Shown: positions 927 to 61,790, numbered from the stretch's first letter. The stretch is DNA of 64,000 nucleotides from an uncultured Alphaproteobacteria bacterium (GCA_944391495.1 CALXTU010000005.1:8565-72564), one strand, 5' to 3'. Notes: generated by a model from the sequence alone, not told the origin. Program-made: numbers and translations.

Positions 927-1592
927 CTAATGTACCGTTACAGGACCTGATGTAGAAGTGCACGCCATGCATAAAGTGGCACCAAAAGAATTAGTGCACT
1001 CTTCTTTGGTTCCGCAGCGGTAGCAGGCGCCGTCGCTGCCTGTAACACCGGTTGATTTCATGCCATATTTGCAGGCGGCGGGAGGGCAAGCGGCGGCTGT
1101 GAAATATCCAGCGTTTATTGTAGCACAGGTTTTTTTGCTTGGTGTTGGATCTGCAACAGAGGGTCTTTCTGTACATTTACAGTATTGTTTCTTTATGGTT
1201 GTTACGCCACACATCATTTTAACTGTATTACCAGTACACCTCAGAAGGGCTTTGCAATCTATGTATCCATCATCAATGCACTCCCGTGCTTCGGCGCTGA
1301 AAGTACACTTATGATATGAATCGTTATACGGACAAGGTGTTTCTTCATATCCGGTTCCGCAACTTTTGGTGCTGGAATATCCGGCCTGTTTGCATTTGTA
1401 GATGCTTGAATTACAATATACGGCGTTTGTATCAAAGGGGCAATGCAGCATGGTTTCGCCGCTGCAATCGGCCTTCGTCATGACATAGCCCAACTCACTG
1501 CAAGTGGGTGGCACCGCGCAGTCAATGGCAGCTAAAGCTGACCCGCCCAATCCGATTAACGCCGCCCCGGCCATTAATAAATATTTCCTCAT
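927..1592 (-). CDS. Secreted Cys-rich protein, family member 1
   Basis: Signal peptide (ALA), N-module CAVPPTCSELGY-x6-CSG-x3-LHCPFD-x5-C, about 23 Cys, AAGGAG RBS. Confidence 0.85.
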   Translation of the reverse strand: MRKYLLMAGAALIGLGGSALAAIDCAVPPTCSELGYVMTKADCSGETMLHCPFDTNAVYCNSSIYKCKQAGYSSTKSCGTGYEETPCPYNDSYHKCTFSAEARECIDDGYIDCKALLRCTGNTVKMMCGVTTIKKQYCKCTERPSVADPTPSKKTCATINAGYFTAAACPPAACKYGMKSTGVTGSDGACYRCGTKEECTNSFGATLCMACTSTSGPVTVH

Positions 1593-1613
1593 CGCTTTTC
1601 TCCTTTTCTCTGC

Positions 1614-1638
1614 TGCAGCAAAACGTTCCTTTTTTTGC
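1614..1638. repeat. Pseudo-palindromic family site, copy A
   Basis: TGCAGCAAAA-CGTTCC-TTTTTTTGC; related copies at 1734, 60850 and 60951. Confidence 0.9.
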
Positions 1639-1712
1639 CGCCATTAAATATAGTATATCAGACATTGGTTAAAAAAGCAATAATTTCGTTTTTACAAATC
1701 TTTATCAAAATC
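1630..1712 (-). promoter_or_regulatory. Conserved 83-bp promoter block of the Cys-rich family (sigma70-like TTGCTT-17-TATACT)
   Basis: -35 at 1675-1680 and -10 at 1652-1657 on the minus strand; 77/83 identical to 60781-60863. Confidence 0.8.
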
Positions 1713-1733
1713 TGCTCCGCTTCTTTGAATTAA

Positions 1734-1758
1734 TGCAGCAAAACGTTCGTTTTTTTGC
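1734..1758. repeat. Pseudo-palindromic family site, copy B
   Basis: TGCAGCAAAA-CGTTCG-TTTTTTTGC, 24/25 direct repeat of copy A, 120 bp away. Confidence 0.9.
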
Positions 1759-1794
1759 ACTGCCGCTACCCGGAAACAAAAAGGAGTTTGTCAG

Positions 1795-2295
1795 ATGAAA
1801 AAACTTATTTTATCCTGCAGCTTATTAGCTTTAACCATGCCGGCCTACGCTGCCTTGGATTGTGATGTACTGCCGACTTGTGAAAAACTCGGCTATGCTT
1901 ATTCCGAAGAAAATTGCGAGGGACAACCGACGCTTAAATGTCCGTTTGACGATACGATGTTATATTGCCCCGAACCAATCAGTCCTGCCGAAAAATGCCT
2001 GGCTGAGGGATATTTCAAAGGGGTTTTATGTATTATCAGTCTAGGTCAACTCGAAGAATCTTGTCCGTATGATGACGACTATGGCAAATGTGTTCAATAC
2101 AGCTGCTCTGAAATCAACCGCTCATATTTTTCCGGTTATGAATGTTCATGTACATACGGTGCCTTATCCACCGGAATAACCGGTTCGGACGGCACATGCT
2201 ATCGATGCGGTACCAAAACAGAATGTAAGGTTGAGGATGATAATCCAAATGACAATCAACTCCCCCTCTCGCCATGTCGCATGTGTAAATTCTGA
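1795..2295 (+). CDS. Secreted Cys-rich protein, family member 2
   Basis: Signal peptide (AYA), CDVLPTCEKLGY-x6-CEG-x3-LKCPFD-x5-C; shares the STGxTGSDGxCYRCGTKxEC block with member 1; AAGGAG RBS. Confidence 0.85.
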   Translation: MKKLILSCSLLALTMPAYAALDCDVLPTCEKLGYAYSEENCEGQPTLKCPFDDTMLYCPEPISPAEKCLAEGYFKGVLCIISLGQLEESCPYDDDYGKCVQYSCSEINRSYFSGYECSCTYGALSTGITGSDGTCYRCGTKTECKVEDDNPNDNQLPLSPCRMCKF

Positions 2296-2312
2296 ATTTT
2301 CACCACACTGTA

Positions 2313-2344
2313 AAAAAATGCTGCTTGTACAAGCAGCATTTTTT
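2313..2344. terminator. 32-bp perfect palindrome / bidirectional terminator, copy 1
   Basis: AAAAAATGCTGCTTGTACAAGCAGCATTTTTT between convergent genes; identical copy at 7838. Confidence 0.85.
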
Positions 2345-2348
2345 CAGA

Positions 2349-4232
2349 TTAATTTTCCAGACCAAGCAGGCGGTATTTTACCCGGACGTCCATTGTCCTG
2401 GCATAGGCATTAATCAATGCGGCGGCTGCATTTTGCTCAAGGTCTTTGCGCATATGTGTATTGGCCGCTTCCAACTGCTGCGGGTTGTCTTCGGCATCAT
2501 GATTGATCACCCGGAGAGGCGAAACAATGGTGGTGATGCCGCCGGAAGACAAAACGGCATAGCCGCCGGTTGCGGTCTGAAACGCCTCAACCGCCTGCGC
2601 CGAATTCAGTTTGGCAAAGGTTTCGCCTTTTTTCAGCGGCGGCGTGGTCTTCAGACGCAGATTGAAGCGTTTGGCGATGTCGGCCAGATTTTCGCCGCTG
2701 TCCAGATCGGCAACAACGTCATTGACGATTTCCTGTGCAATGGCCGATTTTTCGTTCTCGGTCCAGATTTTGATGATTTCCGGTTTGACTTCGTCAATAT
2801 TTTTGAGCCGGGCATCTTCAATTCTGTCAACCGCGGCCAAGACGAATCCGTTTTCGGTCTCAATGGTCTGCGATACCTCATTTTCGTTATAAGAAAAAGC
2901 CGTATCCAGAAAATCGGCCGAAGTAACCAGATCAGCATAGGTCTTGTTGTTGAGAGAAGTGTAGCTTCCGTCTTCTTTCAGACCTTTGACCGAAAGAATT
3001 TTGGCGTCATATTCCTTGGCAATGGTTTTCAGATCAGCGCCGGCGCCGATTTTATCCTCAATGACGGTCATGATTTCCAAAGCCTCATCATAAGCGCGCT
3101 CCTGACGCAGCAGGCTGATAATTTTATCTTTAACCGCGGCCAAAGAAGTTTCCTTTTTCGGCGTAACGGCAATAACTTTAAGAATATGCCAGCCGAATTC
3201 GGAGTTCAACGGACCGACGACATCGTTTAATTTGGCGTCAAATACCTCGGTTGCCAGTTCCGGCAACAGCGAATCGGCCGTAACTTCTCCTAAAGCCGTC
3301 GTTTCTTTATCCTGGCCGGCTTTATCGGCGGCAACCTGATAAAAATCGCTGCCGCTTTGCAGAAGTTTGTATGCCGCTTCAGCCTCTGCCTCGTTATCAA
3401 ACACCATTTGCAGGACTTCGCGTTTTTCCGGAATGACATAATCGGCAATGTTGTCCTGATAGAAAGCCTTGATTTCGTCATCTGAAGGCGTGATGTTGCG
3501 AGTCAGATCGGCTATTTTGAGTTCAATGAACGAAACATCGCGCTTTTCGGCCTCTTCAAACTGCGGGGCAAAGTCCTCGTAATATTGCTCAATTTCTTCG
3601 TCGGAAATATCGCGGTCTATTTTGAGGCTGGCCGGATTGACGGAGATGTAGTCAAAAATCTTCTGCTGATTTTCAATCCGGGTGATGTAGCGGTTCATAA
3701 ACTGCGGGAAAATGATGCCTTCAACCGGCGATGAAACCAGGTGGCGGCTTAAAATGCTCTGACGGAGATCATTGATATATTCCTGCTCGCTCATATCAAA
3801 GTATGACAGCTGCCGGCGCAAAAGTTCCGGGCTGAAACGGCCGGAAGCGTCCATAAATTCGGGCTGGGAGGAAATAATCTGCTGGATAAGCTCGTCGGAA
3901 ATGCTGACGTTTTCTTTTTGTGCCTCACGGGCAATAATCATATCGGTCAGGTTTTGTTTGACCAGTCCGGCCAAAATATCTTTGCGCATTTCGTCGTCAA
4001 CGGTTACGGCATCGCCGAACATGTTTTGGGTTTTGCGGATATTTTCCTGCAGTTTGACGTTCATTTCGTCCTGCAGTATTTCCATATTGTCTACCTTGAT
4101 GACGGCGCGGTTCTTGCCGGCAGAGCTGACATAGCCGGAAATTCCGAACAGCGACATAAAGCTTAAGGCCGTCAGTGCCAAAATGGCTTTGGTGAGCCAT
4201 GAATTTTGGTATTTTCTGATTTTGCTGATCAT
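2349..4232 (-). CDS. ppiD: PpiD / SurA-N peptidyl-prolyl isomerase
   Basis: N-terminal TM, SurA_N region, rotamase motif GPLNSEFGWHILKV; divergent from tpiA as in alphaproteobacteria. Confidence 0.85.
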   Translation of the reverse strand: MISKIRKYQNSWLTKAILALTALSFMSLFGISGYVSSAGKNRAVIKVDNMEILQDEMNVKLQENIRKTQNMFGDAVTVDDEMRKDILAGLVKQNLTDMIIAREAQKENVSISDELIQQIISSQPEFMDASGRFSPELLRRQLSYFDMSEQEYINDLRQSILSRHLVSSPVEGIIFPQFMNRYITRIENQQKIFDYISVNPASLKIDRDISDEEIEQYYEDFAPQFEEAEKRDVSFIELKIADLTRNITPSDDEIKAFYQDNIADYVIPEKREVLQMVFDNEAEAEAAYKLLQSGSDFYQVAADKAGQDKETTALGEVTADSLLPELATEVFDAKLNDVVGPLNSEFGWHILKVIAVTPKKETSLAAVKDKIISLLRQERAYDEALEIMTVIEDKIGAGADLKTIAKEYDAKILSVKGLKEDGSYTSLNNKTYADLVTSADFLDTAFSYNENEVSQTIETENGFVLAAVDRIEDARLKNIDEVKPEIIKIWTENEKSAIAQEIVNDVVADLDSGENLADIAKRFNLRLKTTPPLKKGETFAKLNSAQAVEAFQTATGGYAVLSSGGITTIVSPLRVINHDAEDNPQQLEAANTHMRKDLEQNAAAALINAYARTMDVRVKYRLLGLEN

Positions 4233-4391
4233 TTTATTCTTATCCCTAAATGCAAAAATACTTATAATTGCTGCTGATTATAATCATTTTATTATTTTAT
4301 ACAACTACTCAAATATTGGTGTTGAAAAGTTTTTCCGACTATGCTAGAAAAAGGATAATTTGTAACGTCCAAATACGGAAGGATTTTGAAA

Positions 4392-5150
4392 ATGGCTCGA
4401 AAAATGATGATTGCCGGAAACTGGAAAATGAACGGATTGTCCGCAGACGGCGCCGCTTTGGCCAAGGATGTTGCCTTGGCGGTTAAGGCCAAAAAAAGAA
4501 CTTGCGAATTTGTGGTTTGTCCGCCGTTTACAATTCTGGCGGTTGTTAAAAAAGCTTTGCGCGGCGCCAAGGTTGCTTTGGGCGCGCAGGACTGCCATTT
4601 TGACGAAAAAGGCGCTCATACCGGTGATATCAGTCCGCTGATGCTGACGGACGCAGGGTGTTCTTATGTTATTTTGGGACATTCGGAACGCCGTGCCGAC
4701 CACGGCGAAAGCAATGCTCTGATCTGCCGCAAAGCCGAGGCGGCGCATAAGGCCGGTTTGAAAACGATTATCTGCATCGGCGAAACGCTGGGGCAGCGCG
4801 AGGCCGGCGAAACGATTGACGTTTGCTCCAAACAGATTCTCGGTTCGGTTCCGGACAGCGCGACGGCGGCCGACACGGTGATTGCTTATGAGCCGGTCTG
4901 GGCCATCGGCACCGGAAAGACGCCGACGGCACAAGATGTTGAAGACGTCCATATGGCGGTGCGTAAAGTTTTGGCTAAAAAGCTCGGCAAAGCCCAGGCC
5001 AATAAAATGCGCATTTTGTACGGCGGATCGGTAAAACCGGGCAACGCCAAAGAGCTGCTCGGACTGCCGGATGTTGACGGCGCGCTGGTCGGCGGTGCCA
5101 GTCTGAAGGCGGCTGATTTTATGGCAATTGCCGATAATGCCGGCTGCTAA
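4392..5150 (+). CDS. tpiA: Triosephosphate isomerase
   Basis: [30 protein letters not shown]. Confidence 0.98.
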
Positions 5151-5180
5151 AATATGGATTTTTGAGAAAAGGAAGAAAAA

Positions 5181-5513
5181 ATGGGAACAGTTTTATTGGT
5201 TATTCACCTGCTGGTATGTATTTTGCTGGTGGCCTGTATTTTGATGCAGCGCTCGACCGGCGGCGCGCTTGACGGTTTGGGCGGCGGCTCCGGCGCTTCA
5301 AACTTTTTGAGCGTACGCGGCACCGGAAACCTTTTGACCCGGACAACGGCGATATTGGCAACGTTGTTGTTTGTCACCAGTATTTCGTTGGCATTGTATT
5401 ACCGTGGTGAGGCCAAACCCCGGGAATCGCTGATTGACAAGGCGGCGGCCGAACAAACGGTTCCGGCGGCTCCGGCAGCGGAAACACCGGAAGTTCCGAC
5501 GGCGGAAAAATAA
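5181..5513 (+). CDS. secG: Preprotein translocase SecG
   Basis: Two TMs, LMQRSTGG...NLLTRTTAILA; tpiA-secG-pyrG synteny. Confidence 0.92.
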   Translation: MGTVLLVIHLLVCILLVACILMQRSTGGALDGLGGGSGASNFLSVRGTGNLLTRTTAILATLLFVTSISLALYYRGEAKPRESLIDKAAAEQTVPAAPAAETPEVPTAEK

Positions 5514-5607
5514 ATGTTGCGGAAGCTGAAATGATACGGAGGCATCTTCTCAAAAAAGGGAAGGTGCCTCCATCACTTTTACAAATCATGGGATAAGGGA
5601 TAACAAA

Positions 5608-7245
5608 ATGTCTGAAAATACAAAATTCGTTTTTATAACCGGCGGCGTAGTTTCTTCATTGGGCAAAGGACTGGCCTCTGCCTCGCTGGCGTCTATTTTG
5701 CAGGCGCGCGGTTTTAAGGTCAGGATGCGCAAGCTTGATCCGTATCTGAACGTTGATCCGGGAACCATGAGCCCGTATCAGCACGGCGAAGTTTTTGTTA
5801 CCGACGACGGCGCGGAAACGGATTTGGACCTCGGGCATTACGAGCGGTTTTCCGGTGTACCGTGCCATAAGACCGACAGCGTTACCACCGGCAAAATCTA
5901 TCAGCGGGTGATTGACAAAGAACGCCATGGTGATTATCTGGGCGCGACGATACAGGTTATTCCCCATGTGACCAACGAGATTAAGAATTTTATTTTGTCG
6001 GATATCAGCGACGAGGATTTTGTGTTGTGCGAGATCGGCGGCACGGTCGGCGATATTGAAGGACAGCCCTATCTGGAAGCTATTCGGCAGGTGGCTTATG
6101 AACTGGGGCGCGAACGCTCAATGTTTATTCATGTGACGCTGCTGCCGTATATTCCGACGGCCGGCGAGCTTAAAACCAAGCCGACCCAGCACTCGGTTAA
6201 GAAACTGCAGGAATACGGAATTCAGCCGGATATGCTTTTGTGTCGTTCGCAGATGCCCATTCCGCAGAATGAAAAACGCAAGATAGCACTGTTTTGCAAT
6301 ATTCGCGAAGAAAACGTCATTACGGCGCTGGACGTCAGCAGTATTTATCAGGTGCCGATTGCTTATTCGCGCGAGGGAATGGACAAAGGCGTCTGCCGGC
6401 ATTTCGGCATTGCCTGCGACAATGACGCCGATTTGAGCAAATGGGAAGATATTTTGGAAAAAATCCGCCATCCGGAAGGAGAGGTCAGAATCGCGGTGGT
6501 CGGCAAATATACTAAACTTCTGGAGGCCTATAAGTCTTTGAACGAGGCTTTGACGCACGGCGGTATTGCCAACAAATATAAAGTTAAAATCAAATGGGTT
6601 GATTCCGAGCTTTTGGAAACGGAAGGCGCCGATGAATATTTGAACGACATAAGCGGTATTCTGGTTCCGGGAGGCTTCGGCCAGCGCGGTACGGAGGGAA
6701 AAATTGCGGCAATCCGTTATGCTAGAGAGCATAAAATTCCGTTTTTGGGCATTTGCCTCGGTATGCAGATGGCTGTGATTGAAACCATGCGCAATGTGGC
6801 GGGTATCAAAAATGCCGGCACAACAGAATTTGATCCGGACTGCGAGCCGGTTATCGGTCTGATGACCGAATGGGATAAGGAAGGTGCCAAAGAAATCCGC
6901 CACAAAGACGGGGATTTGGGCGGGACAATGCGGCTCGGTGCTTATGAATGTGTGCTGGTGCCGAATTCTCTGACCGCCAAAATTTACGGCAAAGAGAGAA
7001 TATCCGAACGTCATCGCCACAGATACGAACTGAATATGAGGTATGAAGAAACGCTGCGGCGTTCGGGTATGGATATCGTCGGTAAATCGCCGGACGGAAA
7101 ATTGCCGGAGATTGTTGAAATCAAAGATCATCCGTGGTTTATCGGCGTGCAGTTTCATCCAGAGCTGAAGTCGCGTCCGTTTGATCCGGCGCCGTTATTT
7201 GTTTCTTTTGTTAAAGCAGCTATTGACAAAAGCCGGTTGATTTAA
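5608..7245 (+). CDS. pyrG: CTP synthase
   Basis: [31 protein letters not shown]. Confidence 0.98.
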
Positions 7246-7290
7246 TACATAGGTTACAACTAATATTTAATATAAGCAAAGAAAGAACCG

Positions 7291-7839
7291 ATGAAAAAGT
7301 TATTTGCCTGCACGTTTGCATTGTGGCTGACGGCCGGGACGGCCGCTGCCGGCTGGCTTGAAGACTGGGGCAGACAAACCTGGGAAGAAGCCAAATATGT
7401 GTGGCGCTCCGATCATTATGATATGTATGTGCCGCTGTATGCCTGGCACAACCGGCTGGCGTATGATGACGAGCATATTGCCAAATATAATGAAAATGCA
7501 TTCGGCTTCGGGCTGGGCAAATCGGTTTATGACGAGGCCGGCAACTGGTACGGGTTGTATGCCTTTGCGTTTAAGGATTCCAATTATGAGCTGGAAACGG
7601 TGGCCGGTTTTGCGTATCAGAAAAACTGGAGTCTGGATCCGGACGGCAACTGGAAAGCGGGAATCGGCTACACCATCGGCATGACCCAGCGTGAGGAATA
7701 TGCCTATATTCCGATACCGATGCCGCTGCCGATTGCCGGAATCGAATATAAGCGTCTGGCACTGCAGACGGCATATGTGCCGGGGCTGAAGAATTTCGGC
7801 AATGTGATGCTTTTTTGGCTGAGATTTAATCTGGATTAA
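7291..7839 (+). CDS. pagP: Lipid A palmitoyltransferase PagP
   Basis: YDMYVP..WHNRLAYD...YNE..G.GLG...GNWYGLYAFAFKDS matches PagP including catalytic His and Asp-Ser; signal peptide. Confidence 0.88.
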   Translation: MKKLFACTFALWLTAGTAAAGWLEDWGRQTWEEAKYVWRSDHYDMYVPLYAWHNRLAYDDEHIAKYNENAFGFGLGKSVYDEAGNWYGLYAFAFKDSNYELETVAGFAYQKNWSLDPDGNWKAGIGYTIGMTQREEYAYIPIPMPLPIAGIEYKRLALQTAYVPGLKNFGNVMLFWLRFNLD

Positions 7840-7869
7840 AAAATGCTGCTTGTACAAGCAGCATTTTTT
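7838..7869. terminator. 32-bp perfect palindrome / bidirectional terminator, copy 2
   Basis: Identical to 2313-2344. Confidence 0.85.
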
Positions 7870-7919
7870 GTAACAAGAAAACTACCGGCTAGGCCGGTGG
7901 GTCCCTTTTTCTTTGCCGA

Positions 7920-8810
7920 TTATCCGATATCAGATACCGAACCGCAACTGCCGCAACTGCCGCAGCCGTTACAAATAAGCCGGCTGCCGCATATATCACA
8001 ACGCGGCTTAAAAAACGGCCGATATAGATTTTCGCCGAACAATTCCGTCTGTCCGGTTTTTGTCAATTTAAAATCAATCCGGCGCCCCCGGTGCTGCAAA
8101 CCGGAGCGATATGCCTGCTCGCTTTGCAGGCGTTTATCCGGCAGACGGTATGTCTTGCCATCTTTGACAAACACCGTTCCCGTTTCAATAAAGGCAAACG
8201 TTACATCAGCCGCCCGGCATTCGTCATAAAGCTTCTTCACCCATTCATATCGGAGCGGTCTGGCGCCGTCATAATTCTCGCCGCCGGCAATCACCTGCTC
8301 TATTTGTCCGGCCGACAGATACGCCGCAATACTGACCGGCCCGATAAACGGCGCCGCCATAATTCCTTTGTGTTTAAAAGGCAACTCAAGCAGCAGCGGG
8401 ATTCTCTCATCCGCCATCTGCTGATTTTCGCAGGTAACGTTAAAGAAAATATTTTCCCAGCCGTCGTTCCAACCCTCCGGCAGACACTGCCGCACCCTTT
8501 CCGGCCGTTTGGTCAAAAGATAAAAAACCACGTCCGGCCGGCGGCGCATGATATCCCAGGCCTCATTGCGCCATTTGTCAGCCTCCTCCAAAAAGAAGTC
8601 CGACGTCATACACACCCTGATCTGCTCGCCGCTTTTAATTTTATAGGCGCCGTTTTTGTTCTTATGCAGCGGATAATCAAAATTATTTTTAACCTTAAAA
8701 ACAACAGACCCGTCCATATGGCGCTGCCTGTCCAAAAAATACATATAGCAATGGCGGCAGCCTTCGCTTTTTTTGACGCATCCGTGCCAGGGATTCCAAA
8801 TATCATGCAT
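7920..8810 (-). CDS. DUF5131 (phage Gp37/Gp68-like) radical-SAM-like protein
   Basis: WNPWHGC..SEGC.HCY, TSDFF, LLTKRPER, GGEN; C-terminal Cys cluster. Confidence 0.85.
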   Translation of the reverse strand: MHDIWNPWHGCVKKSEGCRHCYMYFLDRQRHMDGSVVFKVKNNFDYPLHKNKNGAYKIKSGEQIRVCMTSDFFLEEADKWRNEAWDIMRRRPDVVFYLLTKRPERVRQCLPEGWNDGWENIFFNVTCENQQMADERIPLLLELPFKHKGIMAAPFIGPVSIAAYLSAGQIEQVIAGGENYDGARPLRYEWVKKLYDECRAADVTFAFIETGTVFVKDGKTYRLPDKRLQSEQAYRSGLQHRGRRIDFKLTKTGQTELFGENLYRPFFKPRCDICGSRLICNGCGSCGSCGSVSDIG

Positions 8811-37882: not shown

Positions 37883-37959
37883 GGTCTCGTAGCTCAGCTG
37901 GATAGAGCAACAGCCTTCTAAGCTGTGGGTCAGAGGTTCGAATCCTCTCGAGATCGCCA
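37883..37959 (+). tRNA. tRNA-Arg (TCT)
   Basis: GGTCTCGTAGCTCAGCTGGATAGAGCA-ACAGC CTTCTAA GCTGT-GGGTCAGAGGTTCGAATCCTCTCGAGATCGCCA. Confidence 0.96.
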
Positions 37960-38199
37960 ATAAAAAAACACCGCCTCGCGCGGTGTTTTTTGTTGCGTTC
38001 GAGGGAGGATGAGAACCTCTTGGTTCGGAGCGGGTAGTTGGTGAGCACGAGTGTGGAGCGCAGCAAAACACGATGGGCGAACCTTACGACGCGAGGAGGA
38101 CCCGCTTGCGGGAGTGCCCAATCCTCTCGAGATCGCCAATAAAAAAACACCGCCTTGCGCGGTGTTTTTTGTTGCGTTCGAGGGAGGATGAGAACCTCT
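37941..38199 (+). repeat. tRNA-linked direct repeat (80 bp x2, period 179)
   Basis: 37941-38020 and 38120-38199 match at 79/80; each holds the tRNA 3' 19 nt plus a terminator. Confidence 0.92.
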
Positions 38200-53203: not shown

Positions 53204-53215
53204 CACTTTATCAAT

Positions 53216-53546
53216 CTAGATAGACTTCATACAGAAATACATGTGACTCTCCGTTTTACTGACTGCTTGACCTGAATTTCCTTTATAACGCGAGGCTTTA
53301 TCAGCTGATTTTTCTTCTACCCAATATGTTGTTGTACTCGACCAATTACCTCCTTTGCCTATCTTGGCAAAAAACGTATTTACTTCAGCACCATACATAG
53401 AATAGGTTATAGGAGCAATGACGCCTCCAGCTCTTGCACAGGCATTTCGGGCCTCATACCATGTTCCGGTACCCTTAACGGTCAACAATACCCACCGTAC
53501 AAAACCTGCTGTACTTCCACTACCGGCACCACCGGTAAGCATTACC
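53216..53546 (-). pseudogene. 5'-truncated gene with C-type-lectin-like C-terminus (likely Cys-rich family remnant)
   Basis: TWYEARNACARAGG...TYWVE...YFCMK; no signal peptide or RBS; the 5' side runs into the family leader. Confidence 0.6.
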
Positions 53547-53585
53547 TTGCACTGCCGCCACCCGAAAACAAAGAGGAGTTTGTCA
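53547..53585 (+). promoter_or_regulatory. Family RBS leader (type B), truncated at the site's TTGC arm
   Basis: 36/39 identical to 1755-1793. Confidence 0.85.
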
Positions 53586-53705
53586 ATGGCAAATATAACA
53601 CTCAACGCCACAAGATCAAGCTCTGTTTACGGTACGTCTACCGGCGCTACGCCGGTAAATATTGCCGTCTACGCCTATATTTATGTCGGAAGAATCGTTG
53701 ATTAA
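53586..53705 (+). pseudogene. 39-aa ORF resembling the C-terminal end of phage tail-fibre/collar proteins
   Basis: MANITLNATRSSSVYGTSTGATPVNIAVYAYIYVGRIVD directly after the family RBS. Confidence 0.5.
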
Positions 53706-53735: not shown

Positions 53736-53749
53736 CAGCTTATAAAAAT

Positions 53750-54292: not shown

Positions 54293-54432
54293 TTTTCAGT
54301 CCTTTTGCTAGGTTAAACATTATCATTCGGAGTTATAGCAAAAGCCGGGCTGATTTTAAATCGGCTTTTAATACTCTTGCACAAGATTTAAAACCTGATA
54401 TCATTTTTATTTCCAAAAAACGGAGAAAAAAC

Positions 54433-55014
54433 ATGACTGATTATCTGCAACAGTCGGCAGCCGCCGAAAAGCAGGCCCGCGAAATCATTGCCGCGTCAAA
54501 CATTATCAACATCTGGGAGGTGGCCGGCGCCAGAGTTAACATTGTCGGCTCGCTCAAAATCGGCGTTTTGGCCAAACACCGCGACATTGATTTTCATATT
54601 TATACGCCTGAACTCGACATTGACCAGAGTTTTAAAATCATGGCCGCAATCTGCCGGCAGCCGCAAATAAAACAATGTACCTTTATCAATCTTGCCGACA
54701 CGGAAGAACGTTGTTTTGAGTGGCATTTACAGTGGCAGACGGCTGAGGATCAATGCTGGCAGCTTGACCTTATCCAGATTGAGGCCGGCTCTTTGTATGA
54801 CGGTTATTTTGAAAAGACTGCCGATAAAATTAAACAGGCCATGACCGAGGAAATGCGGCAGACCATACTCAAGCTCAAATTTGCAACGCCCGATGACATG
54901 AAAATCGGCGGCATTGAATATTATAAGGCCGTTATTCAGGACGGTATACGCGACTTTGAGAGCTTTCTGCGCTGGCGGCAGAAACAGAATTTTTCCGGCA
55001 TTATTCCGTGGTAA
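54433..55014 (+). CDS. Nucleotidyltransferase-fold protein
   Basis: VGSLKIG...RDIDFHIY (hGS..DxD) and WQLDL. Confidence 0.7.
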   Translation: MTDYLQQSAAAEKQAREIIAASNIINIWEVAGARVNIVGSLKIGVLAKHRDIDFHIYTPELDIDQSFKIMAAICRQPQIKQCTFINLADTEERCFEWHLQWQTAEDQCWQLDLIQIEAGSLYDGYFEKTADKIKQAMTEEMRQTILKLKFATPDDMKIGGIEYYKAVIQDGIRDFESFLRWRQKQNFSGIIPW

Positions 55015-55051
55015 AACCAAAGCCCCTTTTAAGGGGCTTTGATTAAATTGT

Positions 55052-58000
55052 CTACCGCTTTTTATCCTGCAGCAGCGGCCGACCTTTCTGCAGCGCACGT
55101 TTGCGGATTTTACGACGGATGATATTCTCCTCATCAAAGGCTTCGCCGATGATGGCAAACAACATCGGCACAAACAAAGTGGCCACAAAGGTTGACAGGA
55201 TCATACCGCCGATCATGCCCGTGCCGATGGAATGACGGCTGCCGGCGCCGGCACCGGTTGAAATTGCCAGCGGCAGAATACCGAAAGTAAACGCCAGCGA
55301 TGTCATCACAATCGGGCGGAAACGCAGCTTGGCCGCTTCAACCGCTGCCTCGGCATAACTCAGTCCCTCCTGGACTTTAGCCACTGCAAATTCCACAATC
55401 AAAATAGCATTCTTGGCCGCCAGACCAATCAACGTTACCAAACCGACCTGGAAATACAGGTCATTTTGCAGCCCCCGCAGATAGGTTGTCAGCAAGGCTC
55501 CCAAAACCGCAAACGGCACCGACAAAATAACGACGACCGGTAATGACCATTTTTCATACTGTGCCGCCAAAATCAAAAAGATCATGATAATACCGAAAAC
55601 AAATGCCTGGGTCGAAGCGCCGCCGGTCAGTTTTTCCTGATAAGCGGAACCGACCCACGACAGAGCATAATCACTGCCCAAGACCTCTGCGGCAACTTCT
55701 TCCATTGCGGCAATAGCCTGACCGGAGGAATATCCCGCCGCCGGGTCGCCCAGAATTTTGGCTGCCGGAAAGATGTTAAAACGGTTAATCAGTTCCGGCC
55801 CAGTCACCCGTTCTACCGTAATCAGGGTAGACAGCGGAATCAAAATGCCGTCGTTGGATTTCACATAGACATAACGCAAATCGTCCGGCGTGCGGCGGAA
55901 TTTTGCCTCTGACTGCAGCGTAACGCGAAAGTTGCGCCCCATATAGGTAAAGTCATTGACGTAAAGACTGCCGAACGTTGACTGCATTACCGCATAAATG
56001 TCATCAATGGAAACATTCATGATCCGGGCTTTTTCACGGTCAAGGTCAACCCGGTACTGCGGCGTGCTGACCGAGAAAGTCGTCCTGACGTTGCTCAGTT
56101 CCGGCCGTTTGTTGGCGGCAGCGGCAAATTCTTCGGTCTTGGCCATCAGTTCGGCCGAAGTTTTGCCGCTCTTGTTTTGAATATATCCCTCAAAACCGCC
56201 GCTCGTGCTCATGCCGATAATCGGCGGCATGGAAAAGGCATAGCCGATACCTTCGGGCTGACTCATTCCCATCATCGTAAACACTTTGGCCAAATTGTCC
56301 GCCGACTGCGAATCCAACTTGCGCTGCGCCCAGTCTTTTAAGATGATGAAACTGATGCCGGAATAAGTGTTCTGGCTTGCCGACAACATATTAAACCCGT
56401 TGATGGTCAGAACGTCGTCAACATCGGGGTGCTCGCTTACCATTTGTGTCAGTTTTTCGGTAAATTTCTCGGTACGCGGCAGCGATGATGCTTCCGGCAT
56501 CATATGCGCAATCAACAGGTTTCCCTGATCCTCGGCAGGAACAAGGCCTCCCGGAACCGCTTTGAACAAAACGGCAATCAGAACCAGAACGCCGGCAAAC
56601 CCGAGCATGGCCGTTTTGCGGTGGTGCAAAAAGAATCTGACACCGGCCAGGTAACAATCGGTCATTTTGTCAAAAAAGACATTAAACCACCGGAAAAAGC
56701 CTTTCGGTTCTTTGTGTTCCTTTTTGATTATCAGGGCGCAAAGCGACGGTGTCAGCGTCAGGGCAACCAGAGCCGAAATCAAAACCGAAACGGCAATCGT
56801 TACCGAAAACTGTTTATACATAACACCGGTCATACCACCCAAAAAGGCAATCGGCAAAAAGACTGACGAGAGCACCAGAGCAACAGCCACAACCGGCCCC
56901 GAAACTTCTTTCATCGCTTTAATTGCCGCCTCTTTGGGAGACAACCCTTCTTCTTTCATCAGACGCTCAACGTTTTCCAAAACGATGATGGCGTCGTCTA
57001 CCACGATACCGATAGCCAAAATCAACCCGAACAGCGTTAAAAGGTTGATTGAAAAGCCCAACACATACATTCCGGCAAAAGCACCGATGATTGATACCGG
57101 AACCGCCAAAATCGGAATAATCGTCGCACGCATATTCTGCAAGAACAGATAAACAACGATAATAACCAGAAGCACGGCTTCAAAAAACGTATGAATAACC
57201 TCTTCAATCGACACATTGACGAATACCGTCGTATCATACGGAATCTGATAAGTAATGCCCTCCGGAAAGTTCTTGGACAATTCCTGCATTTTGGCTTTGA
57301 CCAGCTCGGCTGTTTCCAGTGCATTGGCTCCCGGCTGCAGATAAACGGCAAAAGCGACCGCTTTTTCGCCGTTAAACGTGGCGCTGACGCTGTAATCCTG
57401 AGCGCCGAGTTCTATCCGGGCAACATCTTTAAGCCTCAGCATACCGCCTTCTTCGTCGCTTTTCAGGATAATTTCGCCAAACTCTTTTTCATCGACCAGA
57501 CGTCCTTTAGTGTTGACGGAATATGTATAGGGCTGATATTCGTCCATCGGCTGCTGGCCAAACTGTCCGGCGGCAAACTGCGAGTTTTGCTCCTGCACCG
57601 CCGCAATAACATCCTGCGGCGTCAAATTATATTCCGCCAGACGATCCGGACTGAGCCAGATACGCATTGAATAATCCTGGTTGGCAAATAACGTGGCACT
57701 GCCGACACCCTTAATGCGCTTGATTTCATCCAAAACATTCAACAACGCGTAATTGGATACATAAAGCGTGTCATATTCCTCGGAAGTTGACTGCATGGAT
57801 ATAACCTGCAAAATCGAGTTTGATTTTTGCTCCACCGTCACGCCTTGTTTGGTGACCTCTGCCGGAAGCTTGGCCGTTGCCGCCTGCACTTTGTTGTTGA
57901 CGTCAATGGTGGCCTGGTCAGGGTCCGTGCCGATGTCAAATACCGCCCCGATGGTCAGGTAACCACTGGAAGTGGCGCTGGAATACATATAAATCATATT

Positions 58001-58222
58001 CTTAACGCCGTTGAGCTCCTGCTCAATCGGTGCGGCAACCGTATCGGCCAAAACTTCGGCGGTGGCGCCGGGATAGGTTGCCGAAATCTGGATTTCCGTC
58101 GGCACGATATTGGGGTATTGCTCAACCGGCAGCACTTTCATTGATACCAGACCGGCCAGAACAATAATCAGGGAGATAACCGTCGCGAATACCGGACGTT
58201 CAATAAAAAACTTTGAAAACAT
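55052..58222 (-). CDS. RND multidrug efflux transporter (AcrB/MexF-like)
   Basis: FFIERPVFA, GIVVDDAI, AKNAILIVEFA, RFRPIVMTS. Confidence 0.96.
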   Translation of the reverse strand: MFSKFFIERPVFATVISLIIVLAGLVSMKVLPVEQYPNIVPTEIQISATYPGATAEVLADTVAAPIEQELNGVKNMIYMYSSATSSGYLTIGAVFDIGTDPDQATIDVNNKVQAATAKLPAEVTKQGVTVEQKSNSILQVISMQSTSEEYDTLYVSNYALLNVLDEIKRIKGVGSATLFANQDYSMRIWLSPDRLAEYNLTPQDVIAAVQEQNSQFAAGQFGQQPMDEYQPYTYSVNTKGRLVDEKEFGEIILKSDEEGGMLRLKDVARIELGAQDYSVSATFNGEKAVAFAVYLQPGANALETAELVKAKMQELSKNFPEGITYQIPYDTTVFVNVSIEEVIHTFFEAVLLVIIVVYLFLQNMRATIIPILAVPVSIIGAFAGMYVLGFSINLLTLFGLILAIGIVVDDAIIVLENVERLMKEEGLSPKEAAIKAMKEVSGPVVAVALVLSSVFLPIAFLGGMTGVMYKQFSVTIAVSVLISALVALTLTPSLCALIIKKEHKEPKGFFRWFNVFFDKMTDCYLAGVRFFLHHRKTAMLGFAGVLVLIAVLFKAVPGGLVPAEDQGNLLIAHMMPEASSLPRTEKFTEKLTQMVSEHPDVDDVLTINGFNMLSASQNTYSGISFIILKDWAQRKLDSQSADNLAKVFTMMGMSQPEGIGYAFSMPPIIGMSTSGGFEGYIQNKSGKTSAELMAKTEEFAAAANKRPELSNVRTTFSVSTPQYRVDLDREKARIMNVSIDDIYAVMQSTFGSLYVNDFTYMGRNFRVTLQSEAKFRRTPDDLRYVYVKSNDGILIPLSTLITVERVTGPELINRFNIFPAAKILGDPAAGYSSGQAIAAMEEVAAEVLGSDYALSWVGSAYQEKLTGGASTQAFVFGIIMIFLILAAQYEKWSLPVVVILSVPFAVLGALLTTYLRGLQNDLYFQVGLVTLIGLAAKNAILIVEFAVAKVQEGLSYAEAAVEAAKLRFRPIVMTSLAFTFGILPLAISTGAGAGSRHSIGTGMIGGMILSTFVATLFVPMLFAIIGEAFDEENIIRRKIRKRALQKGRPLLQDKKR

Positions 58223-58235
58223 GACTTTTTCCTAT

Positions 58236-59414
58236 TTAATTAGCGGGCGCCTGTTCTACCGGTACTTTTGCCGCAGCATCCGAAATCGGCTTTACCTGCA
58301 TTCCGGGACGCAGTTTTAACAAATCGGATATAATAATCCGGTCTCCGGTATCAACGCCTTCATCTAATATCCACAAACCGTCCGGTGTGGTCAAGCCGGT
58401 CTGAACATGAACCATCTCAACAATACCGCCGGCATTAACACGATAAACAAACGCACCGTTTGCTCCCTGCATGACAGCTTCCTGCGGTACGGCCAGCGCA
58501 TTGATACGCTTTACGCCGTCAATTACCAGACGCAAAAACTGTCCGGGACGCACTTTTCCCCGCGGATTAGGGAAAACGGCCCGAAGTTTGATGGTTCCGG
58601 TACTTTCGTCAATTGTCGGGTTAATAAAATTGATTGTTCCGGTTTCACTGTATTCGGTTCCGTTGCCGAATCTCAGTCTGGCGACCACCTCGGATTTGTT
58701 TTCCGGATTTTTAAGCAGGCCGCGTTCAACCATATTGCCTAAAGACAAAATATCGTTTTCGGAAGCCGAGAAAATAACATAAATCGGATCGAGCTGGGTA
58801 ATATGCGTCAATAATCCCGCATCGCCGGAAACGGAAATCAGACTGCCTTCAGACTGGGTTTCCATGCTGGTGATGCCGCTGATCGGCGCTTTTACCGTTG
58901 TATAGTCCAGATTAAGCTGCGCCGAATCGACCTCAGCCTGAGCCAGCTGGACGGAAGCCTCCATGGAATCTTTATTGGAACGTGCTTCGTCGCGTGTTTT
59001 TTCGCTGGCGTATCCTTGTTTAAACAACTTCTCGGTTCGTTTCCACTGAGTTTCGGCATTGCGCAGCTGCGCCTGAGCCTGAGCTAATTGCGCCTTAGCC
59101 TGATTCAGCGCCACCTGATAAGGTGCCGGATCAATCTGAAACAACACGCTGCCTTCTTCGACTCTGGTTCCTTCAACATAGTTGCGTTTCAACAAAATTC
59201 CGCCGACCCGCGCCCGGACTTCCGTTTCTTTGGAGCCCTGTGCACGTGCCGCAAATTCAAAACTCAGCGGAACATCCTGCGGTGCCAGCTCAACGACATG
59301 AACTTCAGGTAATGCTGCCTGCGGTGACGGATTCTCCTTGCCGTCATTTTTCTTGCAGGCTGACAAAGCCAGCAGTAAACATGTCAAAGTAATTATTTTA
59401 CGACCGTTAAACAT
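58236..59414 (-). CDS. RND periplasmic adaptor (AcrA-like) lipoprotein
   Basis: Lipobox LSAC, EVRARVGG, LFQIDP, TTVKAPISG, LRAVFPNP. Confidence 0.93.
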   Translation of the reverse strand: MFNGRKIITLTCLLLALSACKKNDGKENPSPQAALPEVHVVELAPQDVPLSFEFAARAQGSKETEVRARVGGILLKRNYVEGTRVEEGSVLFQIDPAPYQVALNQAKAQLAQAQAQLRNAETQWKRTEKLFKQGYASEKTRDEARSNKDSMEASVQLAQAEVDSAQLNLDYTTVKAPISGITSMETQSEGSLISVSGDAGLLTHITQLDPIYVIFSASENDILSLGNMVERGLLKNPENKSEVVARLRFGNGTEYSETGTINFINPTIDESTGTIKLRAVFPNPRGKVRPGQFLRLVIDGVKRINALAVPQEAVMQGANGAFVYRVNAGGIVEMVHVQTGLTTPDGLWILDEGVDTGDRIIISDLLKLRPGMQVKPISDAAAKVPVEQAPAN

Positions 59415-59593
59415 ATTTTTCTCCGTAAAAAAACAAAACATTTTTTCTACCTTACAATAAGATGATGAAAAGCACAGCCATCTTTGCAAAAAATATCATC
59501 TCTGTGGATAGTTGATAATGTATATACCGTTTTGAAAATATGAAAAAGGCCCTCTCGTTGCAGAGAAGGCCTTGAGAAAATCCAAGCAACCAA

Positions 59594-60076
59594 TTAACGT
59601 TTGGAGAACTGGTAAGAACGACGGGCTTTGGCGCGGCCGTATTTCTTACGTTCAACCGTACGATCATCACGCGTCAGGAAGCCGGCCTTTTTCAGGCAGT
59701 CGCGCAATTCCGGCTCATAAGCGTTCAGAGCTTTGGAAATACCGTGCTTAATCGCACCGGCCTGACCGGACAAACCGCCGCCTTTAACCGTGCAAACGAC
59801 ATCAAATTCATTAACGCGGTTGGCAACCTCAAACGGCTGGTTGATAATCATTTTCAAAACCGGACGGGCAAAATACTGATCAATTGATTTCTCGTTAATC
59901 GTGATATTACCTTTACCGGCTTTAATCCAAACGCGGGCAACGGCATCTTTTCTTTTGCCGGTGGCATAAGCGCGTCCCTGTTTATCTTTTTTGGCCTTGC
60001 GAACAACCGTCTCGGCAGCAGCTTCAACTTTGGCCGCTTTTTTAATATCCTGCAATGATTCGATTTTTTCAGCCAT
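59594..60076 (-). CDS. rpsI: 30S ribosomal protein S9
   Basis: [28 protein letters not shown]. Confidence 0.98.
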
Positions 60077-60078
60077 AA

Positions 60079-60543
60079 TTATCTGCTCCTTTTATTCTTG
60101 GGGTTTTTAGAGGCAATGTCCAAAACCTCGGGGTTCTGGGCGGTATGCGGATGCTCACTGCCGGCATAAACCTTCAATTTGGTCATTTGCTGACGACCCA
60201 TCGGATTACGGGAAATCATACGCTCAACGGCTTTAATGATAACTCTTTCCGGGAAACGGCCGTTCAGGATTTTTTCGGCAGTGGTTTCTTTAATACCGCC
60301 GATCCAGCCGGTGTGTTTGAAATATTTTTTGGCCAGCAGTTTGTTGCCGGTCAGTTTAACCTTGTCGGCATTGATAACGACAACATAGTCGCCGCAGTCA
60401 ATGTTCGGAACGAAGTTGGGTTTGTGTTTGCCGCGCAGAATTTTGGCGATTTCGGCAGACAAACGACCCAAGACGACGCCCTCGGCATCGACAACATACC
60501 ATTTTCTCTCAATGTCTGAGGGTTTTGTTGCATATGTGTTCAT
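60079..60543 (-). CDS. rplM: 50S ribosomal protein L13
   Basis: [36 protein letters not shown]. Confidence 0.98.
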
Positions 60544-60780
60544 CTGTTTTCTCTCTTTTGATTAGAAATTTAACTTCGGCGTCAATATACAGGAATAAAA
60601 CATATTGTCAACAAAAAAATATCATTATTTTTCAACGCATTGATAAGTGGTATTATATTACCGTTAAACAATGCATTGTTTTTGCACATTTTATGCAAAT
60701 AATAAAACGCCAACAACCAATCATATTCTTTTTCAGCCGCTGCCCTGGCGGTTGCTGCCTTTACAATATAAGCCGGCGGT

Positions 60781-60863
60781 GATTTTGATAAAGATTTGTA
60801 AATATGAAATTATTGCTTTTTTAACGATTGTCTGATATACTGTGTTTAATGGCGGCAAAAAAA
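60781..60863 (+). promoter_or_regulatory. Second copy of the Cys-rich family promoter block (TTGCTT-17-TATACT)
   Basis: 77/83 identical to the reverse complement of 1630-1712. Confidence 0.85.
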
Positions 60864-60890
60864 CGTTCCTTTTTTTGCCGCCACTTTTTT
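60850..60890 (+). terminator. Leader terminator formed by the left site in the present orientation
   Basis: TGGCGGCAAAAAAA-cgttcc-TTTTTTTGCCGCCA (14-bp perfect stem) followed by CTTTTTT. Confidence 0.65.
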
Positions 60891-60969
60891 GTCTTCATCA
60901 ATTTTCTTTTTCCCTGATTTTCCAAACCTTTCGCTTTTGGCCTTTGTGTAGCAAAAAAAGGAACGTTTT
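60860..60969. repeat. Perfect 19-bp inverted repeats flanking 72 bp (candidate invertible switch)
   Basis: AAAACGTTCCTTTTTTTGC (60860-60878) and GCAAAAAAAGGAACGTTTT (60951-60969). Confidence 0.85.
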
Positions 60970-60996
60970 GCTGCGGCAGAGAAAAGGAGAAGAGCA

Positions 60997-61755
60997 ATGA
61001 GGAAATATCTGTTAATAATGAGTGCAGGTTGTATCGGGTGGCTGGCAACCGGTGCACAGGCGGCCTGTCCTGTTTTCCCTACATGTGAAGAAATGGGTTA
61101 TACAATGACCGCAACGGATTGTTCCGGCAGAGCAACGCTCAAATGTCCGTCTGACCATGCAAAAGTTTTTTGTATTGCCGACAGTTCAACTGAATGTCAA
61201 ATCGGCTCGGTTTTATATAATGACCTCAAGTGTTATGACGAAGCACCGTCCGGTAAAACTGCCATCGGTATCGTTTTTGATACCAGCAAGCGCCTGGCCA
61301 TCAGTTTGGATTCCGGAAAGAATAGCATCTCTTGGGGCAGTAGTGCTGATATTTCCGGATTAGATAACTGTACCGGATCAAATTATACTTCTTGCGGCAC
61401 TGATGGCCAGAGCAATACGCAAAAGATTGTTGCCGCATTGGGCGAATCTTCTGATTATGCGGCCGGTTTTTGCTATACGAGTACTTACGGTAGCTTGCCC
61501 AAAGGCAGCTGGTTCTTGCCGAGCGCCAGTGAATTGAAAACACTGTATAACAACAGAACGCAAATTAATACCGGTATAACCGCAGCCGGGTTTAGTTCTA
61601 CCATTTCGACTGCCTCAATCTATTATTGGTCTTCCACCGAGCGCAACAGTTACAGTGCCTTACTTCTGGGTCTGAGAAATGGCAAAGTGAGCGGCGGCAA
61701 ATTTAAGAATCGTTCCCTTAGTGACCTTTACGCCAGGTGTGCCGTGAAATATTAG
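60997..61755 (+). CDS. Secreted Cys-rich family member 3 with C-terminal DUF1566/CLec-like domain
   Basis: MRKYLL start as in member 1, CPVFPTCEEMGY-x6-CSG-x3-LKCPSD-x5-C; WFLPSASEL and YYWSSTE motifs. Confidence 0.88.
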   Translation: MRKYLLIMSAGCIGWLATGAQAACPVFPTCEEMGYTMTATDCSGRATLKCPSDHAKVFCIADSSTECQIGSVLYNDLKCYDEAPSGKTAIGIVFDTSKRLAISLDSGKNSISWGSSADISGLDNCTGSNYTSCGTDGQSNTQKIVAALGESSDYAAGFCYTSTYGSLPKGSWFLPSASELKTLYNNRTQINTGITAAGFSSTISTASIYYWSSTERNSYSALLLGLRNGKVSGGKFKNRSLSDLYARCAVKY

Positions 61756-61760
61756 CGTAC

Positions 61761-61790
61761 AAAAAAGCCCCTCAAAGAGGGGTCTTTTTT
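61761..61790. terminator. Bidirectional terminator
   Basis: AAAAAAGCCCCTC-aaa-GAGGGGTCTTTTTT. Confidence 0.8.

Follow-up and report, generated by a model that had tools for sequence, protein, structure and literature searches.

What does a stretch of control DNA do that is kept almost unchanged beside genes that have diverged? The question is raised by a window of 64,000 nt from an uncultured Alphaproteobacteria bacterium (the window being the whole stretch of DNA analysed), in which three loci, at 927-2295 (locus 1), 53216-53705 (locus 2) and 60781-61755 (locus 3), had been described in an initial annotation as dispersed members of a variable family of secreted, adhesin-like proteins, controlled through rearrangement at a repeated site by a recombinase encoded elsewhere. 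As that annotation had stated, the non-coding DNA is better conserved than the coding DNA: the promoter block of locus 1 matches that of locus 3 at 77/83 positions (1630-1712 versus the reverse complement of 60781-60863; 93% nucleotide identity), whereas the proteins encoded beside it, A1 and A2, are 54% identical over their first 61 residues and do not align beyond. A general search for repeats in the window returned these shared blocks as well.

We analysed the window together with the whole genome to which it belongs (G000; 1.46 Mb in eight contigs, C1-C8; apparently that of a gut alphaproteobacterium) and with the genomes of relatives. The reading that we consider likely is that the shared control DNA represents a set of flip-switches, located at the crossover sites of a remotely encoded Mpi-family serine invertase and varying secreted or surface proteins. 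The repeated element would thus be a recombination site, as had been proposed, and both its anatomy and the orientation evidence given below support this assignment.

A 24-bp site with the layout of a serine-invertase crossover site

The element shared by loci 1 and 3 is a 24-bp near-palindrome with the consensus GCAAAAAAA(C/G)G-WW-C(C/G)TTTTTTTGC, in which 11-bp inverted half-sites surround a 2-bp centre. Degenerate outer arms aside, asymmetry is limited to the central dinucleotide (TT/AA, or AT), since positions 10-11 and 14-15 pair within the palindrome. The A/T runs vary from site to site (A4 to A8) yet belong to the half-sites, and at the loci of metagenome-assembled genomes (MAGs) obtained in the collection scan the arms are perfect over 15 bp per side. 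Crossover sites of serine invertases consist of two inverted half-sites of about 12 bp around a 2-bp centre, the asymmetry of which sets directionality. Because only the central 2 bp break the symmetry, we assign the site to this layout and not to that of a tyrosine recombinase. Furthermore, one site of locus 1 (R1, see below) contains AAACGTTCGTT, which fits the Mpi repeat ARACGTTCGTN as quoted in a published account (PMC8375218), and sites of the CGTTCC type deviate from this repeat at one consensus position.

The pattern AAAACGTTCSTTTTTTTGC occurs four times in the window (1620, 1740 and 60860 on the plus strand and 60951 on the minus strand), the number given in the initial annotation; 0.06 matches are expected by shuffling, and none of 100 shuffles reached four. 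A 19-mer search of G000 allowing up to two mismatches returned 23 matches, compared with none for the reversed control; sorted by hand, these gave 21 sites at 11 loci, each site lying upstream of a secreted-protein gene. Eight of the ten pairs of adjacent sites are inverted (TT/AA), one is AT/AT, and one, that of window locus 1, is direct.

The full 24-mer was also found outside G000. When one genome per species was scanned, 23 loci were returned, 20 of them in MAGs titled Alphaproteobacteria or Azospirillum, two in Parabacteroides MAGs and one in Exercitatus. A separate metagenome scan returned 37 contigs, most of which carry a single GGATCC- or CGATCC-centred copy; in one group of these contigs there is also an insertion/deletion of 1 kb, unrelated to the site and located some 80 bp away from it. 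A metagenome scan with the promoter block returned no contigs, and Rfam placed only three tRNAs on the window, with no known RNA family in the leaders.

Promoter and putative terminator cassettes in front of a secreted-protein family

The three complete family proteins of the window, A1, B1 and A2, begin with a signal peptide and the module C..P(P/T)C..(L/M)GY..C..L.CP.D..C. In the C-terminal part, members of the family are Lcl_C-like, resemble the phage tail Collar domain, or are Cys-rich without a recognised family; the Lcl_C and Collar domains are in keeping with the variable, adhesin-like character that had been proposed. Twelve open reading frames (ORFs) of G000 carry the N-terminal motif, and one locus on C6 holds a different divergent pair of Cys-rich proteins of 376 and 381 amino acids (aa). 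Across the genus, the family is present in 29 of 40 other genomes, in up to 60 copies, many of them beginning about 67 nt inside the end of a contig. The largest set is that of G051, where the 65-aa N-terminal module has 60 matches in a genome of 1.5 Mb; other congeners have 15-21.

The control DNA of these genes is modular, being composed of a promoter block P (about 100 bp, with TTGCTT-N17-TATACT), a segment S (72 bp, without a promoter), the 24-bp sites and the gene-side leaders LA and LB. Six arrangements of these parts occur in G000: P between two sites and flanked by divergent A and B genes (window locus 1 and C2:344k); P between two sites, with a B gene on one side only (C3:56k and C8:22.6k); S between two sites, followed by P, a third site and a B gene (C7:41.9k); a fixed P followed by S between two sites and an A gene (window locus 3, C2:152k and C7:19.5k); P followed by a single site and a gene (C1:273k); and divergent A and B genes separated by one hybrid site, P being missing (C3:181.8k). 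Promoter-bearing segments between inverted repeats are found in G000 at C3:56.0k, C6:26.8k, C7:41.9k and C8:22.6k; the window itself has none, the sites of locus 1 being direct and locus 3 combining a fixed promoter with S.

If a Mpi-family serine invertase encoded elsewhere acts at these sites, the arrangements would work as two kinds of switch. Where inverted sites surround P, a flip would aim the single promoter at the gene or away from it, and at a divergent pair it would redirect the promoter from one gene to the other. Where inverted sites surround S below a fixed promoter, a flip would change what follows the hairpin of the first site: the S orientation that supplies a U-run after the hairpin would create an intrinsic terminator (OFF), and the opposite orientation, lacking the U-run, would permit expression (ON).

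At all five single-gene loci with two full sites (three in G000 and two in MAGs), P faces away from the gene and into the hairpin of the distal site, which makes little sense as a static design, because intact genes would stay silent. No sigma-70-like promoter directed at B genes was found, either in the scan of locus 1 or by eye. A sigma-54 promoter reading was likewise dismissed by eye, as the GG...GC spacing does not fit.

Some members of the family show signs of decay. The family gene at C2:152k has an in-frame stop, and the B gene at C3:56k lacks the family motif and looks frameshifted. At C2:98073-98720, a 5'-truncated paralogue of A2 (85% identity from residue 45 onward) is joined directly to the first approximately 25 nt of a P block; it is a pseudogene, or possibly a silent copy. 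A gene outside the family may also be under a switch, since at C7:40847-41947 P is directed, through an inverted S without the tail of a terminator, at an EamA-family transporter gene that lies roughly 100 bp beyond. Just upstream of cassettes, short repeats with the motifs GTCATTCTGAGG and GAAGAATCT, resembling repetitive extragenic palindromes (REP) or miniature inverted-repeat transposable elements (MITE), are clustered in G000 (C2:97700-98100 and C7:19650-19800), in G052 and at MAG loci (L034, L124-L126).

Orientation variants at conserved loci

The orientation evidence comes from assembled sequences, none of it from reads, and the comparisons of S and of the promoter segments of the congener G054 are made between paralogues. 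In G000, S lies forward relative to the promoter at three loci and inverted at one (C7:41.9k, where 59/72 positions match in the inverted orientation versus 26/72). In the sister species G017, S is present at six loci, three in each orientation (in one example, 60/72 positions match inverted versus 35/72 in the same orientation). The length of S is tightly conserved at 70-72 bp.

In G054, a 153-bp switch between inverted sites precedes the gene at 12/12 family loci examined; the sites, GCATTTAAAC-CACC-GTTTAAATGC and a GGTG partner of this sequence, differ from those of G000. Between them, an interior of 136 bp with TTGCTT-N17-TATAAT points away from the gene at 10/12 of these loci and toward it at 2/12. 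Compared with the reference, the two gene-directed interiors match at 115-118 of 136 positions when inverted and at 90-91 in the same orientation, while both flanks are conserved at 12/12.

The 24-mer of G000 also flanks a promoter segment in a Parabacteroides locus and in an orthologous metagenome contig, the flanks of which agree at 263/300 positions. The segment beside the 24-mer matches between these two contigs at 126/168 positions inverted versus 88/168 in the same orientation, and a match to the published TAnnTTTG consensus is located beside the gene-side site in one contig and beside the far site in the other. Judging by these alignments, sites of this class border a segment whose orientation has switched between two assemblies of the Bacteroidales type.

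A junction polymorphism exactly at the site was detected in a related gut alphaproteobacterium, in which three contigs (L019, L070 and L061) and eight contigs of a second configuration (L037, L038, L045, L049, L050, L064, L066 and L067) agree on one side of the site and differ fully beyond it. In the genome behind L019, the partner sequence of the second configuration is present, 100% identical, on another contig (L073) at another AT-centred site. Two such configurations are what an exchange at the centre of the site would produce. Several contigs of G052 break off within or at sites.

A remotely encoded candidate invertase and its co-occurrence with the site

G000 encodes three small serine recombinases. 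Two of these exceed the cut-off of 272 bits of NF009949, the NCBIfam equivalog 'master DNA invertase Mpi family', by which the Mpi-family call was made: SR3 (198 aa, C1:325707-326300, 300.4 bits) and SR2 (C1:331.1k, 273.8 bits). Both contain the Resolvase catalytic domain; the HTH_7 domain scores above cut-off in SR2, and the helix-turn-helix match of SR3 is weak and below cut-off. The solved structures nearest SR3 are those of DNA invertases, with Gin the closest in the PDB, and the RVSTDKQ motif aligns with Gin.

No site was found within about 1.5 kb of the small serine-recombinase genes at 15 loci (three in G000, including the one that scores under the cut-off of the Mpi family, and 12 from relatives and Parabacteroides). 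With two Mpi-family genes on C1, neither having a site within this distance, the recombinase encoded elsewhere that had been postulated as the likely actor has plausible candidates, and we infer that SR3 is the best of them.

SR3 is 61% identical to a Mpi-family protein of a Parabacteroides MAG, compared with 55% to its paralogue SR2, and matches over the Mpi-family cut-off were obtained in 13/24 other genomes of the genus and in 0/16 genomes of the same class outside it. As SR3 is nearer to the Parabacteroides protein than to SR2 and the 16 class genomes sampled outside the genus yield no match, these comparisons suggest that the invertase was horizontally acquired from Bacteroidales. Homologues in alphaproteobacterial MAGs are already annotated as Mpi family in their source records.

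The third small serine recombinase of G000 (180 bits with the Mpi model) lies at C2:271-277k (L003, L004) in an AT-rich island, together with an integrase-like tyrosine recombinase and a large ORF that is cut off by the locus end. The island is probably a mobile element that has nothing to do with the switches.

The distribution of the site follows the lineage of SR3. In a draw of 41 genomes (G000, 24 others of the same genus and 16 from outside it), the strict 14-mer AAAASGWWCSTTTT is enriched only in G000 (15 matches) and G017 (19). G052 has an SR3 orthologue of 81% identity but only one strict 14-mer match; it shows the same architecture with interrupted A-tracts (GCAAATAAAGG...). The half-site pattern GCAAANAAASGWWCS, chosen after inspection of G052 so that its count is not a blind test of co-occurrence, has 25 matches in G000, 35 in G017 and 12 in G052, and 0-2 in the other 38 of the 41 genus genomes counted (controls, 0-1 per strand). 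Of the 40 other genomes of the genus, only G017 (80%) and G052 (81%) have an SR3 orthologue that reaches 80% identity; the next full-length match is 65% identical, and a partial match of 71% over 163 residues occurs in the fragmentary genome G001. G018 and G014, which are as close by their L13 proteins (96%, versus 95% for G052), have neither the site nor an SR3 orthologue. Close orthologues of SR2, on the other hand, occur in genomes without the site (G014, 93%; G016, 89%; G047, 82%; G022, 81%). Other species may therefore use other pairs of invertase and site, as the different site of G054 suggests.

Locus 3, a predicted terminator switch

Locus 3 lies between the genes of the ribosomal proteins L13 and S9 and ssb. 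Its promoter block (60781-60854, plus strand) has a -35 element, TTGCTT, at 60813-60818 and a -10 element, TATACT, at 60836-60841, 17 nt apart and directed at gene A2; no site lies upstream of the block, which makes this promoter a fixed one. It is followed by site 1, GCAAAAAAACG-TT-CCTTTTTTTGC (60855-60878, centre TT at 60866-60867), by the promoter-less 72-bp S module (60879-60950) and by site 2, GCAAAAAAAGG-AA-CGTTTTGCTGC (60951-60974, centre AA at 60962-60963), which is inverted relative to site 1 at a distance of 96 bp, centre to centre. A promoter scan placed nothing inside S (60879-60950). The type-A leader with its ribosome-binding site (60975-60996, plus strand) leads to A2 (60997-61755, plus strand), which encodes a secreted protein of 252 aa with the shared N-terminal module and a C-terminal domain resembling Lcl_C (DUF1566), the match to which, 28.2 bits, is under the cut-off of 34.9. 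A terminator-like hairpin follows at 61767-61783 (plus strand).

In the terminator scan of site 1 and its flanks (60850-60883), a 14-bp stem with six G-C pairs and the tail CTTTTTTG was obtained, the T-run being contributed by the first end of S. The hairpin folds at -20.3 kcal/mol and is followed by CUUUUUUG, and it is terminator-like in both respects. When 60866-60963 was flipped in silico, the first hairpin folded at -11.7 kcal/mol and had no U-tail. From these folding models, the locus 3 hairpin would terminate transcription as assembled, and A2 is predicted to be in the OFF state.

Locus 1, an arrangement locked as assembled

At locus 1, a promoter block in the opposite sense separates two divergent genes. 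Gene A1 (927-1592, minus strand) encodes a secreted, Cys-rich protein of 221 aa without a Pfam match, with a signal peptide beginning MRKYLL and the N-terminal module C..PPTC.ELGY..C..L.CPFD..C; a terminator-like hairpin was placed behind it by the terminator scan (885-903, minus strand). Upstream of A1 are the type-A leader with its ribosome-binding site (AAAGGAGA; 1593-1614, minus strand), site L1, GCAGCAAAACG-TT-CCTTTTTTTGC (1615-1638, centre TT at 1626-1627), the A-side half-site of which is degenerate (A4), and P (1639-1734, minus strand), whose -35 element TTGCTT (1675-1680) and -10 element TATACT (1652-1657), 17 nt apart, are directed at A1. The junction of a type-A leader with MRKYLL is present, as initially annotated, both here (1593-1630, minus strand) and at locus 3 (60959-60996, plus strand).

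On the other side of P are site R1, GCAGCAAAACG-TT-CGTTTTTTTGC (1735-1758, centre TT at 1746-1747), the type-B leader with its ribosome-binding site (1759-1794, plus strand) and gene B1 (1795-2295, plus strand), which encodes a secreted, Cys-rich paralogue of 166 aa (MKKLILSCSLL..., with LPTCEKLGY). In the assembled state B1 has no promoter of its own, and a scan of locus 1 found no sigma-70-like promoter directed at it. The hairpin formed where P meets the A leader folds at -10.4 kcal/mol and has no tail. With P aimed at A1 and B1 promoter-less, A1 is predicted to be ON.

L1 and R1 form a direct pair (TT/TT), 120 bp centre to centre. Because the sites are direct, the P block is not invertible as assembled and the locus is locked, so that locus 1, which had served as an example of switching, cannot be one in this state. 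Excision between the two sites would give a junction with a single site such as that at C3:181.8k, and in sequence the latter locus indeed looks like the excision product of a direct-site pair.

A 32-nt perfect palindrome with A/T runs, resembling a bidirectional terminator, follows B1 (2313-2344). The same palindrome, in which a GC-rich stem stands between an A-run and a T-run, is present in identical form at 7838-7869; both copies stand behind unrelated genes, the mark of a reused bidirectional terminator. A tRNA gene (663-745) lies directly beside locus 1, and the unit of A1, P and B1 between this tRNA gene and a PpiD-like gene occupies a typical spot for inserted DNA. The statements that the loci are set between unrelated genes and followed by terminator-like hairpins were thus borne out, the names of the neighbouring genes being taken from a reading of the translations and not from a family-library run.

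Weighing the alternatives

Several observations weigh against local flipping by a serine invertase. The direct sites of window locus 1 are an arrangement that such an enzyme should excise, not invert. In G017, the central dinucleotides at the S ends are swapped between two loci with the same S orientation, for which simple inversion provides no explanation, and all P blocks of G000 share one orientation relative to their neighbours. Since the orientation differences were obtained by comparing paralogues and not reads, they may be old events; the site pairs at paralogous loci are not independent of each other, and the co-occurrence of site and invertase amounts to few independent observations, as the three site-rich genomes may form one clade. 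Finally, with 96-131 bp from one crossover point to the other, the segments fall short of the invertible regions of 183-195 bp that have been described or found; loops this short require sharply bent DNA, and their inversion by a serine invertase is unproven.

The best-surviving alternative, which we nevertheless regard as unlikely, is that the sites serve mainly in exchange between loci or in the capture and shuffling of cassettes (in the manner of integrons or shufflons, or through large inversions), and not in local flips of 96-131 bp. Such exchange would suit the modular loci, in which the same half-sites are joined to varied partners, the single hybrid site without P at C3:181.8k, and the two-configuration case in the related species, which involves distant sequences. 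It would also suit the gene-plus-cassette unit beside the L13 gene of locus 3, which is absent there in 29/29 other genus genomes examined, none of which carries a site or a gene of the family in the 1.5 kb upstream of L13, and it avoids the difficulty of inverting very short loops. Yet at the G054 loci the flanks are constant and only the 136-bp interior is flipped, in a geometry that is the same at 12/12 loci, and the narrow length range of S also weighs against shuffling. Exchange and local flipping are not mutually exclusive.

We give slightly less credence still to static regulation, in which the palindromes would be RNA hairpins (terminators or attenuators) or operators of a dimeric regulator, common to the loci through paralogy and without present recombination. 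The sites do fold, that of locus 3 stably and with a U-tail; several of them extend into long perfect palindromes; many metagenome contigs have a single GGATCC-centred copy; and no orientation heterogeneity has been observed in G000. What a static design leaves unexplained is the orientation pattern of the central dinucleotides, the occurrence of S and P in both orientations at otherwise conserved loci, the identity of the site with that on either side of a promoter segment which two Parabacteroides-type contigs carry in opposite orientations, the co-occurrence with a single invertase lineage, the junction polymorphism exactly at the site, and promoters that fire only into a hairpin beside intact promoter-less genes.

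The initial proposal of a tyrosine recombinase acting on arms around a 6-bp asymmetric spacer is very improbable: the CGTTCC/GGAACG core seems asymmetric by eye and G000 has three genes with a Phage_integrase domain, but four of those six core positions pair in the palindrome to leave 2 bp asymmetric, the three enzymes (XerD-like, XerC-like, the latter encoded inside the window, and the island integrase) score 43-61 bits against cut-offs of 221-222 for tyrosine-type DNA invertase models, and the site fits the repeat of Mpi, itself a serine recombinase.

Flip-switches of a Mpi-family serine invertase remain the reading that we prefer, and we infer that switching in G000 would be ongoing.

Relation to known systems

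By recombinase family, site and multi-locus logic, the system is, as far as sequence comparison can tell, of the Mpi type. In B. fragilis, 13 regions are reported to be inverted by Mpi, which is a serine recombinase (PMC4747536). Like it, the present candidate belongs to the same NCBIfam equivalog family and is a small serine recombinase encoded away from its targets; both systems comprise many dispersed loci for surface molecules, with promoter segments between inverted repeats, and share the ARACGTTCGTN core, the full 24-mer being identical to Parabacteroides-type sites. The differences are nevertheless considerable. The present host is alphaproteobacterial and has promoters of the sigma-70 type, whereas those of Bacteroides are of the -7/-33 type; the cargo consists of single genes for small secreted proteins and not of polysaccharide operons; and the segments measure 96-153 bp between crossovers, compared with about 183-192 bp. 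Moreover, the present system adds the promoter-less S module, and several of its sites are perfect palindromes that double as hairpins.

The Hin, Gin, Cin and Pin invertases (with sites such as hix and gix) share with the present candidate the inverted half-sites of about 12 bp around a 2-bp crossover, and Gin structures are the nearest to SR3. Each of these enzymes acts on a single kb-sized segment adjacent to the gene that encodes it, and inversion requires Fis and an enhancer. Here, in contrast, there are many tiny segments and a remote enzyme, and no enhancer was identified.

The geometry of locus 3 recalls cwpV of C. difficile. Inversion at cwpV uses a tyrosine recombinase (RecV), whereas the present candidate is a serine invertase, and G000 has no dedicated tyrosine invertase. 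At cwpV, a fixed promoter precedes a 195-bp invertible region without promoter or ORF and, in the OFF transcript, a stem-loop with poly-U is reported to form where the left repeat adjoins that region (PMC2784873). Locus 3 has the same geometry, with a fixed upstream promoter, an S module without promoter or ORF and a predicted terminator at the junction; it differs in that the interior is 72 bp and the stem is the crossover site itself. In addition, S recurs at several loci, whereas cwpV is a single locus. Locus 3 would work like cwpV but is not a member of the cwpV type.

The literature searched, outside of which lay supplements and subscription papers, contained no account of a comparable system in Alphaproteobacteria, in agreement with the initial annotation, in which none was recognised. 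The Mpi literature found concerns Bacteroides or Clostridioides only, and inverton surveys touch on Alphaproteobacteria in passing; in one survey, inversion signatures are reported for 0/4 alphaproteobacterial samples (PMC5903667).

As the site is identical and the enzyme 61% identical, horizontal transfer of a whole regulatory logic is suggested. If the preferred reading is correct, the 'master invertase' strategy of gut Bacteroidales extends to another phylum in the same habitat, and a genome of 1.5 Mb has room for many secreted, adhesin-like proteins that form a phase-variable repertoire. The compact parts of the switch (a 24-bp site and a cargo of 72 or about 100 bp) would probe the shortest loop that a serine invertase can invert, and recombination at the sites would explain the assembly breaks upstream of the gene family in these organisms.

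A bolder version of this reading, which we put forward tentatively and hold to be somewhat short of an even bet, is that the uncultured gut Alphaproteobacteria of this genus possess an Mpi-type invertase network, gained by horizontal transfer, whose invertons are smaller than any seen so far (an interior of 72 bp, with crossover points 96 bp apart). In such a network the crossover site would be the terminator stem, and inversion would swap only its U-tail; promoter flips and exchange between loci would add further states, resulting in combinatorial expression of a family that reaches 60 copies in 1.5 Mb; and invertase and site would co-diversify, with A-tract sites in G000, G017 and G052 and GCATTTAAAC-CACC-GTTTAAATGC sites in G054.

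Locus 2 and an unrelated duplication in the window

Of the three loci initially grouped together, 1 and 3 proved to be members, and locus 2, set between flagellar-rod-like ORFs and an unrelated ORF, is read as a decayed remnant on the basis of its sequence. Site, promoter block and family gene are all missing from it, the 39-nt B leader being the sole shared part (53547-53585, plus strand; 36/39 identical to 1755-1793, as first reported). On one side of this leader is an ORF fragment of 108 aa (53216-53542, minus strand) without a signal peptide and with a weak C-type-lectin match (E 0.006); on the other, an ORF of 39 aa (53586-53705, plus strand) aligns with the extreme C-terminus of Collar-type B proteins and has the appearance of a pseudogene with an internal deletion. 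G000 contains no paralogue of either ORF.

Elsewhere in the window, two 80-nt copies that are 99% identical lie 179 nt apart (37941-38020 and 38120-38199). The first copy starts with the last 16 nt of a tRNA gene (37883-37956) and includes a terminator-like hairpin, and from its sequence the pair resembles the att-type duplication that integration of a small element leaves behind.

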